From contig OZ024741.1 of NCBI GenBank assembly GCA_964016885.1, positions 179,924,001-179,988,000 on the forward strand: a DNA stretch of 64,000 bases. The letters run 5' to 3'. Position numbers and translations under genes: made by a program. Each line of letters starts with the position of its first letter. The first letter of the stretch is position 1. This stretch comes from Eledone cirrhosa (taxonomy: Eukaryota). This document shows, in pieces, positions 18,598 to 19,027 of this stretch. Below the pieces are notes generated by a model, which ran no database searches, had not been told where the DNA came from, and saw only the letters and a list, made by a program, of their open reading frames with translations.

Positions 18598-18598
<1 letters not shown>

Positions 18599-19023
18599 TT
18601 CGCCGAAAAGAAGTAAGTGACACAGTCACTACTTTAAAACCGATAGCGTATGGTCTTCAAATTGTTTTTAATTAAACATACGGTATATTGCCAAATATAC
18701 TATACATACATTCATGTGTACATCGCTATTTCAGAGCACCAATCCTAATACCTAATTTTTGCTGGACTGACAATCGCTCTGTATAATCAGCTGCTGATTA
18801 TTACTGGAATTCTATAAGAATCCAGCTTCTATAATTTTCGGCGGAAGCAGGGAGTGCGTGGCTCTGATGATCGCCAAACAGCGTAAAACAGACTGTTAGC
18901 TTCTCTCCCTTTTTCGCCGAAAAGAAGTAAGTGACATAGTCACTACTTTAAAACCGATAGCGTATGGTCTTCAAAATGCTTTTAATTAAACATACGGTAT
19001 ATTGCCAAATATACTATACATAC

Positions 19024-19027
<4 letters not shown>
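18598..19027 (+). mobile_element. partial tandem of a 314-nt HHR monomer (degenerate HHR 18860-18901)
   Basis: cgccgaaaagaagtaagtgaca occurs at 18601 and 18915. HHR reads ggct-CTGATGA-tcgc-caaaca-gcgt-AAAA-cagact-GTT-agct (G12>A). Homologous to the 310-nt unit. Confidence 0.75.

Follow-up and report, generated by a model that had tools for sequence, protein, structure and literature searches.

A ~310-nt hammerhead repeat of Eledone cirrhosa, a likely non-LTR retrozyme, carries the insertion footprint of PLEs

Four insertions of a hammerhead repeat

The window analyzed here is a stretch of 64,000 nt from Eledone cirrhosa (GCA_964016885.1, OZ024741.1, positions 179,924,001-179,988,000 of the forward strand), and all positions below are those of the window. 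Four dispersed insertions of a multi-copy repeat, termed A to D, lie within these 64 kb (Table 1). Where its units stand in tandem they are non-coding, with a hammerhead in each copy (C: 3.8 + 2.7 units). The helix I 5ʹ strands begin at 18860 (A), 63159 (B), and 10483 (C); these coordinates, the motifs found there, and the monomer lengths of 314, 303, and 310 nt are as given in a first-pass annotation of this DNA. The annotation also took the monomers to be homologous, which is confirmed by whole-unit identities of 77% (A-B), 64% (A-C), and 66% (B-C) and by blastn similarity that extends beyond the ribozyme (E 5e-93 for A-B, 2e-22 for A-C).

Table 1. Positions of the four insertions, their structural features, and the decayed Penelope-like element (PLE) in the window.
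Feature	Position	Strand	Description
Insertion A	18598..19022	+	1.37 units of 314-nt repeat; (TA)n runs on either side; starts 15 nt 3ʹ of predicted cleavage site; short 3ʹ end
A outer stem around type I hammerhead	18837-18847 with 18911-18921	+	
A hammerhead	18858..18903	+	Core 18864-18870; helix II 18871-18884; helix III 18888-18896; G12 position 18885, now A; predicted cleavage after 18897
A conserved 3ʹ domain	18643..18745	+	Closing stem and hairpins
Insertion B, inverted arm	62785..62930	-	3ʹ domain only, without ribozyme; long end
Insertion B, direct arm	62932..63313	+	About 1.27 units of 303 nt; short end
B hammerhead core	63166-63172		U3-A8; GUG triplet 63198-63200
Insertion C, inverted arm	9594..10431	-	2.7 units of 310 nt; short end; three intact-core hammerheads
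Insertion C, direct arm	10430..11614	+	3.8 identical units; long end; four intact-core hammerheads; first core 10489, predicted cleavage after 10519 (GUA); helix III region palindromic
Insertion D	18138..18380	.	Two inverted arms with 3ʹ domain only, without ribozyme; short end on left arm, long end on right arm
Decayed PLE	39740-43320	-	RT fragment 42349-42864; broken downstream frames with Cys-rich linker

Units have a GC content of 34-39% (34% in C). The longest reading frame within a unit spans 27-32 codons, and no frame encoding an RT and GIY-YIG is present there. Reads join the end of the unit directly to its own start, with periods near 311-314. Because no frame exceeds 32 codons and because A, B, C, and the reads all show a self-closing unit, the repeat is not a plain PLE terminus.

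Copies beyond the window were sampled by aligning reads and contigs to the A unit only. At 80% likeness, 4,828 of 12.5 million reads in X6 and 6,781 contig pieces in X1 match this unit, neither figure being a copy number. Two of the sequencing runs are RAD libraries, whose ends are tied to fixed sites, and ribozyme variants that have diverged are lost from the alignment; read depth was therefore not used to compare domains. In 22 contigs of X1, a different shared sequence lies upstream of the middle domain, with loose ends before 18754 (agreement 0.72); this sequence could be a subfamily variant or a join to a longer parent element.

A covariance model of the three ribozymes, which are the only distinct ribozyme sequences in the window, found no additional family member there: its nine strong matches all correspond to copies already described, and lower-scoring matches fell on opposite strands, on unrelated palindromes, or on hammerheads of different families. 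One metagenome scan for further copies returned 0 matches, and nine loci from another scan were dismissed as chance, having little in common beyond the searched motif. The window contains no tRNA gene. A host-gene function was also considered and set aside, with no evidence for it.

Other mobile elements in the window

The decayed PLE, whose motif names are our own presumptive assignments, includes a minimal hammerhead (39929) and, at about 43140-43320, a terminal arm in inverted orientation; its inverted layout is the same as that of the units. It retains remnants of the endonuclease region, and its Atlas look-alikes carry RVT_1 and PF26215 in a minority of members. Searches of Pfam and PDB with the PLE fragment gave no match. 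Between this one PLE of the window and the unit, no common sequence was detectable.

Several other elements carry hammerheads or hammerhead-like motifs as well. Hammerhead-bearing stubs at 23930-24330 (+) and at 26620-26800 (-) / 27040-27410 (+) are related to the terminus of the decayed PLE (local scores 248 and 91.5). The first of these combines C3 with A8, and the second forms an inverted pair. At 21966-22166, both arms of a small inverted insertion carry a hammerhead (cores at 22096 on the minus and 22110 on the plus strand), and helix III is long; the core and helix II are similar to those of subfamily C, scoring 34 against a shuffle maximum of 25 in one arm and 32.5 in the other. An inverted insertion in (TA)n at 16941-17181, with a hammerhead-like motif per arm, belongs to a different family. 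A further repeat at 36100-37100 has inverted arms (36219-36463/36853-37097, 97%) and a hammerhead-like motif at 36466 (-).

To the left of insertion D, 17197-17500 and 17790-18095 form a near-identical direct duplication of about 300 bp, as seen by eye, and two tandem 204-bp SINE-like units flanked by TA runs occupy 22580-23000. Broken frames at 30939-35255 (+) and 52179-54486 (-) are presumably Helitron-like Rep/helicase remnants, and those at 2166-3655 (-), 6694-9256 (+), 20895-21848 (+), and 50330-51187 (+) we take to be fragments of LINE-type reverse transcriptase or endonuclease. A 33-bp minisatellite with 129 copies and strong GC skew covers 55941-60177.

Ribozyme fold and covariation

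Insertions A, B, and C each contain a type I hammerhead, as defined in PMC4209133, with helices I-III and an outer stem of 11-13 bp. Helix sizes are canonical, with six positions in helix I, which is open, four in helix II, and a weak helix III. All three keep helix I, helix II, and a long outer stem, as had been annotated, but not every pair is intact: the outer stem of B has an A.C mismatch at pair 4, helix I of A has a U.U, and B has an A.A at the base of helix II. Rfam gave no match in the window at the gathering score; around A, B, and C, a cutoff relaxed to E of 10 yielded only chance-level matches of miRNA type and no hammerhead.

The ribozyme domain is the least sequence-conserved part of the unit (54-69%), and its pairs are nonetheless kept. 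When the three domains were aligned with MAFFT and the structure was fixed from the core, 68 of 70 cells (97.1%) held a pair. Changes on both sides occurred in 10 of the 24 pairs, compared with one to two in slid controls; 0 of 500 shuffles equaled this number, a count that is no probability, with three related sequences and an outer stem picked from the same data. The third helix III pair cannot form in the C monomer, so nine of the ten both-side changes are firm. Under a second null, the same number of substitutions was scattered over the stems. Between A and C, 21 substitutions in 22 pairs leave 21 pairs in place, whereas the null leaves 11.7 +/- 2.1 and equaled the observation once in 200,000 trials; the corresponding counts were 109/200,000 for B vs C and 142/200,000 for A vs B. 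With only three ribozyme sequences, the covariation test is below R-scape grade.

Additional signs of the RNA come from the core and from the strand. The core of B carries a U3-A8 swap, a covariation known in PLE hammerheads (PMC4209133). In 60 cells read on the plus strand, G.U occurs six times and A.C once; this weakly favors the plus strand as the RNA, some G.U being common by descent. Circular folds have z of -4.6 to -5.9 on the plus strand and -3.5 to -4.5 on the minus strand.

The paired changes could in principle have come about at the DNA level, through template switching or conversion between near-palindrome arms, rather than through selection on RNA. In favor of this, the elements form inverted structures in DNA, folding is good on either strand, and n = 3. 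However, such copying would leave unexplained the U3-A8 swap, the retained catalytic boxes, and the one-strand predominance of G.U over A.C, and helices I-III are dictated by the core instead of being freely picked. An origin of the pairs in DNA copying is thus considered extremely improbable.

In the predicted ensemble of A, the outer-stem pairs have probabilities of 0.93-1.0. Helix III is practically absent from the predictions for A, B, and C (about 0); helix I has values of 0-0.25 in A and no more than 0.03 in B, and helix II has 0.15-0.18 in C. By these predictions, the active fold is not favored in monomers. The palindromic helix III region of C would permit pairing between tandem copies, with a predicted duplex of -7.5 kcal/mol, and such pairing between copies has been described for dimeric hammerheads (PMC4209133).

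Copy state, age, and selection

The catalytic core is intact in all seven copies in C. In reads, position 18885 is G in 475 of 516 cases (X6) and 404 of 430 (X7), or 92-94%, whereas copy A is without this G12; the GUC cleavage triplet is present in 58% of reads. Copy A differs from most reads at at least five further positions (18662, 18718, 18768, 18770, and 18793). The type I core boxes, C3-U4-G5-A6-N7-G8-A9 and G12-A13-A14, are present together with a cleavable triplet in C and, as reads represent it, in the A family; the full set is absent in copy A (G12) and copy B (GUG). Judged by sequence, A and B are copies in decay within a family whose core is intact. Copy A was considered as an active ribozyme and rejected, its catalytic G12 being mutated to A.

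Since 835 of 838 positions are identical between its arms, the insertion of C is recent. The duplicated part of A is identical at 109 of 112 positions and the arms of D at 74 of 75. The first-pass description of the family as "old, diversified" is borne out insofar as the insertions span a range of ages, from 0.4% difference in C through 3% in A to about 9% divergence between the arms of B; these values neither establish great age nor date the divergence of the subfamilies. Selection for size, proposed in the same place, was dismissed because common descent alone could give the 6-11 indel events seen against 54-97 substitutions per unit pair, with only three lengths represented. The companion proposal, selection for RNA structure, is supported by the retention of pairs in the least-conserved domain and further by the swap in the core of B and by three both-side changes in the 3ʹ domain (see below). 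Because A and B have decayed, the sequences support selection that would have acted on the mobile lineage and not on these copies.

Insertion ends and the conserved 3ʹ domain

The most conserved part of the unit is a stretch of 100 nt starting about 60 nt 3ʹ of the cleavage site (76-93% between subfamilies). The first-pass annotation noted neither this domain nor the PLE-type ends and did not name the class of the repeat. This 3ʹ domain folds as a closing stem with hairpins, in which 3 of 21 pairs changed on both sides across five arms, and its fold has z of -2.2 to -3.8 in the four full-length copies. In A, the domain contains both insertion end sites and the tail of about 35 nt between them. 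We infer that the 3ʹ domain is the reverse-transcriptase recognition site.

All four insertions terminate in (TA)n within the 3ʹ domain, at sites that lie at about +125-132 or +160-167 relative to predicted cleavage. Two ends are likewise evident in the sequencing data, where loose read ends fall at 18715 and 18750, 35 nt apart. Elsewhere in the genome, the two (TA)n-joined ends occur in 336 and 331 reads of X6 and in 222 and 331 of X7, and the same two ends are found in 41 and 51 contigs of X1. Paired read variants at 18705/18716 were discounted as covariation because (TA)n-ending reads mimic such pairs.

Three of the four insertions (B, C, and D) are inverted, with 5ʹ ends meeting in the middle, and all three combine one short with one long end. 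Opposite-strand joints lie at varied places in the reads. The 5ʹ starts vary also: five of seven arms begin at +15 to +46 and the two arms of C near +220-230. The insertions have (TA)n on either side, a sequence in which the large target-site duplication of some non-LTR retrozymes would not show.

PLEs, too, have a tail, inverted copies, and (TA)n targets, and a full element could yield ribozyme-less stubs like D, so that the units might be truncated terminal repeats (pLTRs) of an autonomous PLE, with C a local tandem amplification. Against such an origin, the sequence that precedes the unit in A, B, and C is its own 3ʹ domain and not coding sequence; no reading frame is present, and reads close the unit on itself. 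Moreover, the hammerheads are canonical in size, whereas in PLE pLTRs the minimal type, whose helix II is long, predominates (PMC4209133), and it is also the type found at 39929. The pLTR origin is very improbable.

A proposed route of mobilization

The ~310-nt repeat is likely a non-LTR retrozyme mobilized in trans by a PLE reverse transcriptase-endonuclease. Under the proposed route, tandem transcripts (e.g., of C) would self-cleave, probably as dimers, into monomers of 303-314 nt, and the circularization of these monomers would fall to a host ligase. The conserved 3ʹ domain would be the binding site of the PLE protein, which would nick AT-rich DNA, and reverse transcription would start inside the RNA, about 125-132 or 160-167 nt past the cleavage site. 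With a cut linear monomer as template, only stubs that lack the ribozyme, like D and B's inverted arm, would result; a circle or an uncut multimer would be needed to run past the junction, as in A, B, and C. Each round of copying would select templates that keep both folds, and inserted copies would then decay. Selection at every round is thus the proposed cause of the covariation.

Whether cleavage is part of this route bears on a second reading, in which the repeat is PLE-mobilized but copied from uncut linear multimeric transcripts, with no circle, and the hammerhead serves another step or is vestigial. In vitro, insertion by a lizard PLE was independent of hammerhead cleavage: hammerhead mutants still inserted, and uncut RNA was the main substrate (PMC11167929). 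Tandem arrays such as C could provide multimers, and the predicted monomer ensembles do not favor the active fold. Copying of uncut multimers is nevertheless unlikely in view of the family-wide intact core with its compensatory changes, including U3-A8, and of the 5/7 arms that begin 15-46 nt past the cleavage site. In addition, circles have been demonstrated for coral, mussel, and axolotl repeats of like build (PMC7229834). Among frog retrozymes, one of nine cleaved in vitro and eight did not.

Within the preferred route through cleavage and circles, a more specific arrangement can be put forward tentatively. In this twin priming, one PLE dimer may prime at both internal sites of the 3ʹ domain, one per nicked strand, giving the two ends of every inverted insertion. 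Because the start sites lie only 125-167 nt past the ribozyme cut, the circle would then be obligatory for inheritance of the whole unit. If true, twin priming would give the reason why retrozymes retain the hammerhead and would supply the missing recognition element that links a retrozyme to its PLE partner.

Comparison with known systems

The repeat resembles metazoan non-LTR retrozymes, as far as these are described in the accessible parts of PMC7229834 and 10.64898/2026.07.22.740005, in its low-GC unit (150-450 bp there), canonical type I hammerhead, tandem and dispersed copies, lack of an LTR, non-coding nature, weak or palindromic helix III, and the presence of PLEs in the genome. In those parts of the two papers, the link of metazoan retrozymes to PLEs is drawn from co-occurrence and sequence trees. 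Inverted arms are found here, and the word "inverted" is absent from the accessible text of PMC7229834; the main text of 10.64898/2026.07.22.740005 likewise has no description of the tail and inverted arms seen here. According to the accessible portion of a 2020 review, retrozyme repeats show no conserved motif pointing to a partner (PMC7761336); in contrast to the retrozymes treated in that portion, the present repeat has both a tail and a conserved 3ʹ domain. A literature search that covered main texts, with few subscription papers among them, found no description of tail-bearing inverted retrozyme insertions or of a cephalopod retrozyme.

The insertions themselves are like those of endonuclease-bearing PLEs. 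The PLE footprint described in PMC3846280 and 10.1101/2021.04.23.441226 consists of an inverted 5ʹ-truncated arm, a tail of 30-40 bp on one end, and AT-rich targets. The inverted truncated arm, the one-end tail, the (TA)n/AT-rich targets, and partial tandems are shared with these PLEs, and the end sites again lie a short way 3ʹ of the hammerhead. For the lizard PLE in vitro, the tail is the stretch between two internal RT start sites a short way 3ʹ of the hammerhead (PMC11167929). Unlike endonuclease-bearing PLEs, the repeat has no RT or GIY-YIG frame, its unit is self-closing, and its hammerhead is canonical, not minimal. Non-autonomous Chlamys elements with head-to-tail copies and N-terminal endonuclease PLEs without hammerheads are both reported in Craig 2021 (10.1101/2021.04.23.441226). 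With the PLE hammerhead variants of PMC4209133, the family shares the U3-A8 covariation and occurrence among many compensatory-change consensus families per genome; those variants are active as dimers, and their helix II has 7-8 bp as opposed to four positions here.

In its testable features the repeat agrees with the non-LTR retrozymes of metazoans, whose origin from PLEs has already been argued, and it is not a new kind of system. Its significance lies in a PLE insertion footprint seen directly on a short hammerhead unit, which links a likely retrozyme directly to PLE machinery. Furthermore, the young intact array C and the defined 100-nt 3ʹ domain make retrozyme mobility testable, as a template for an in vitro PLE assay and as bait in a search for the partner.
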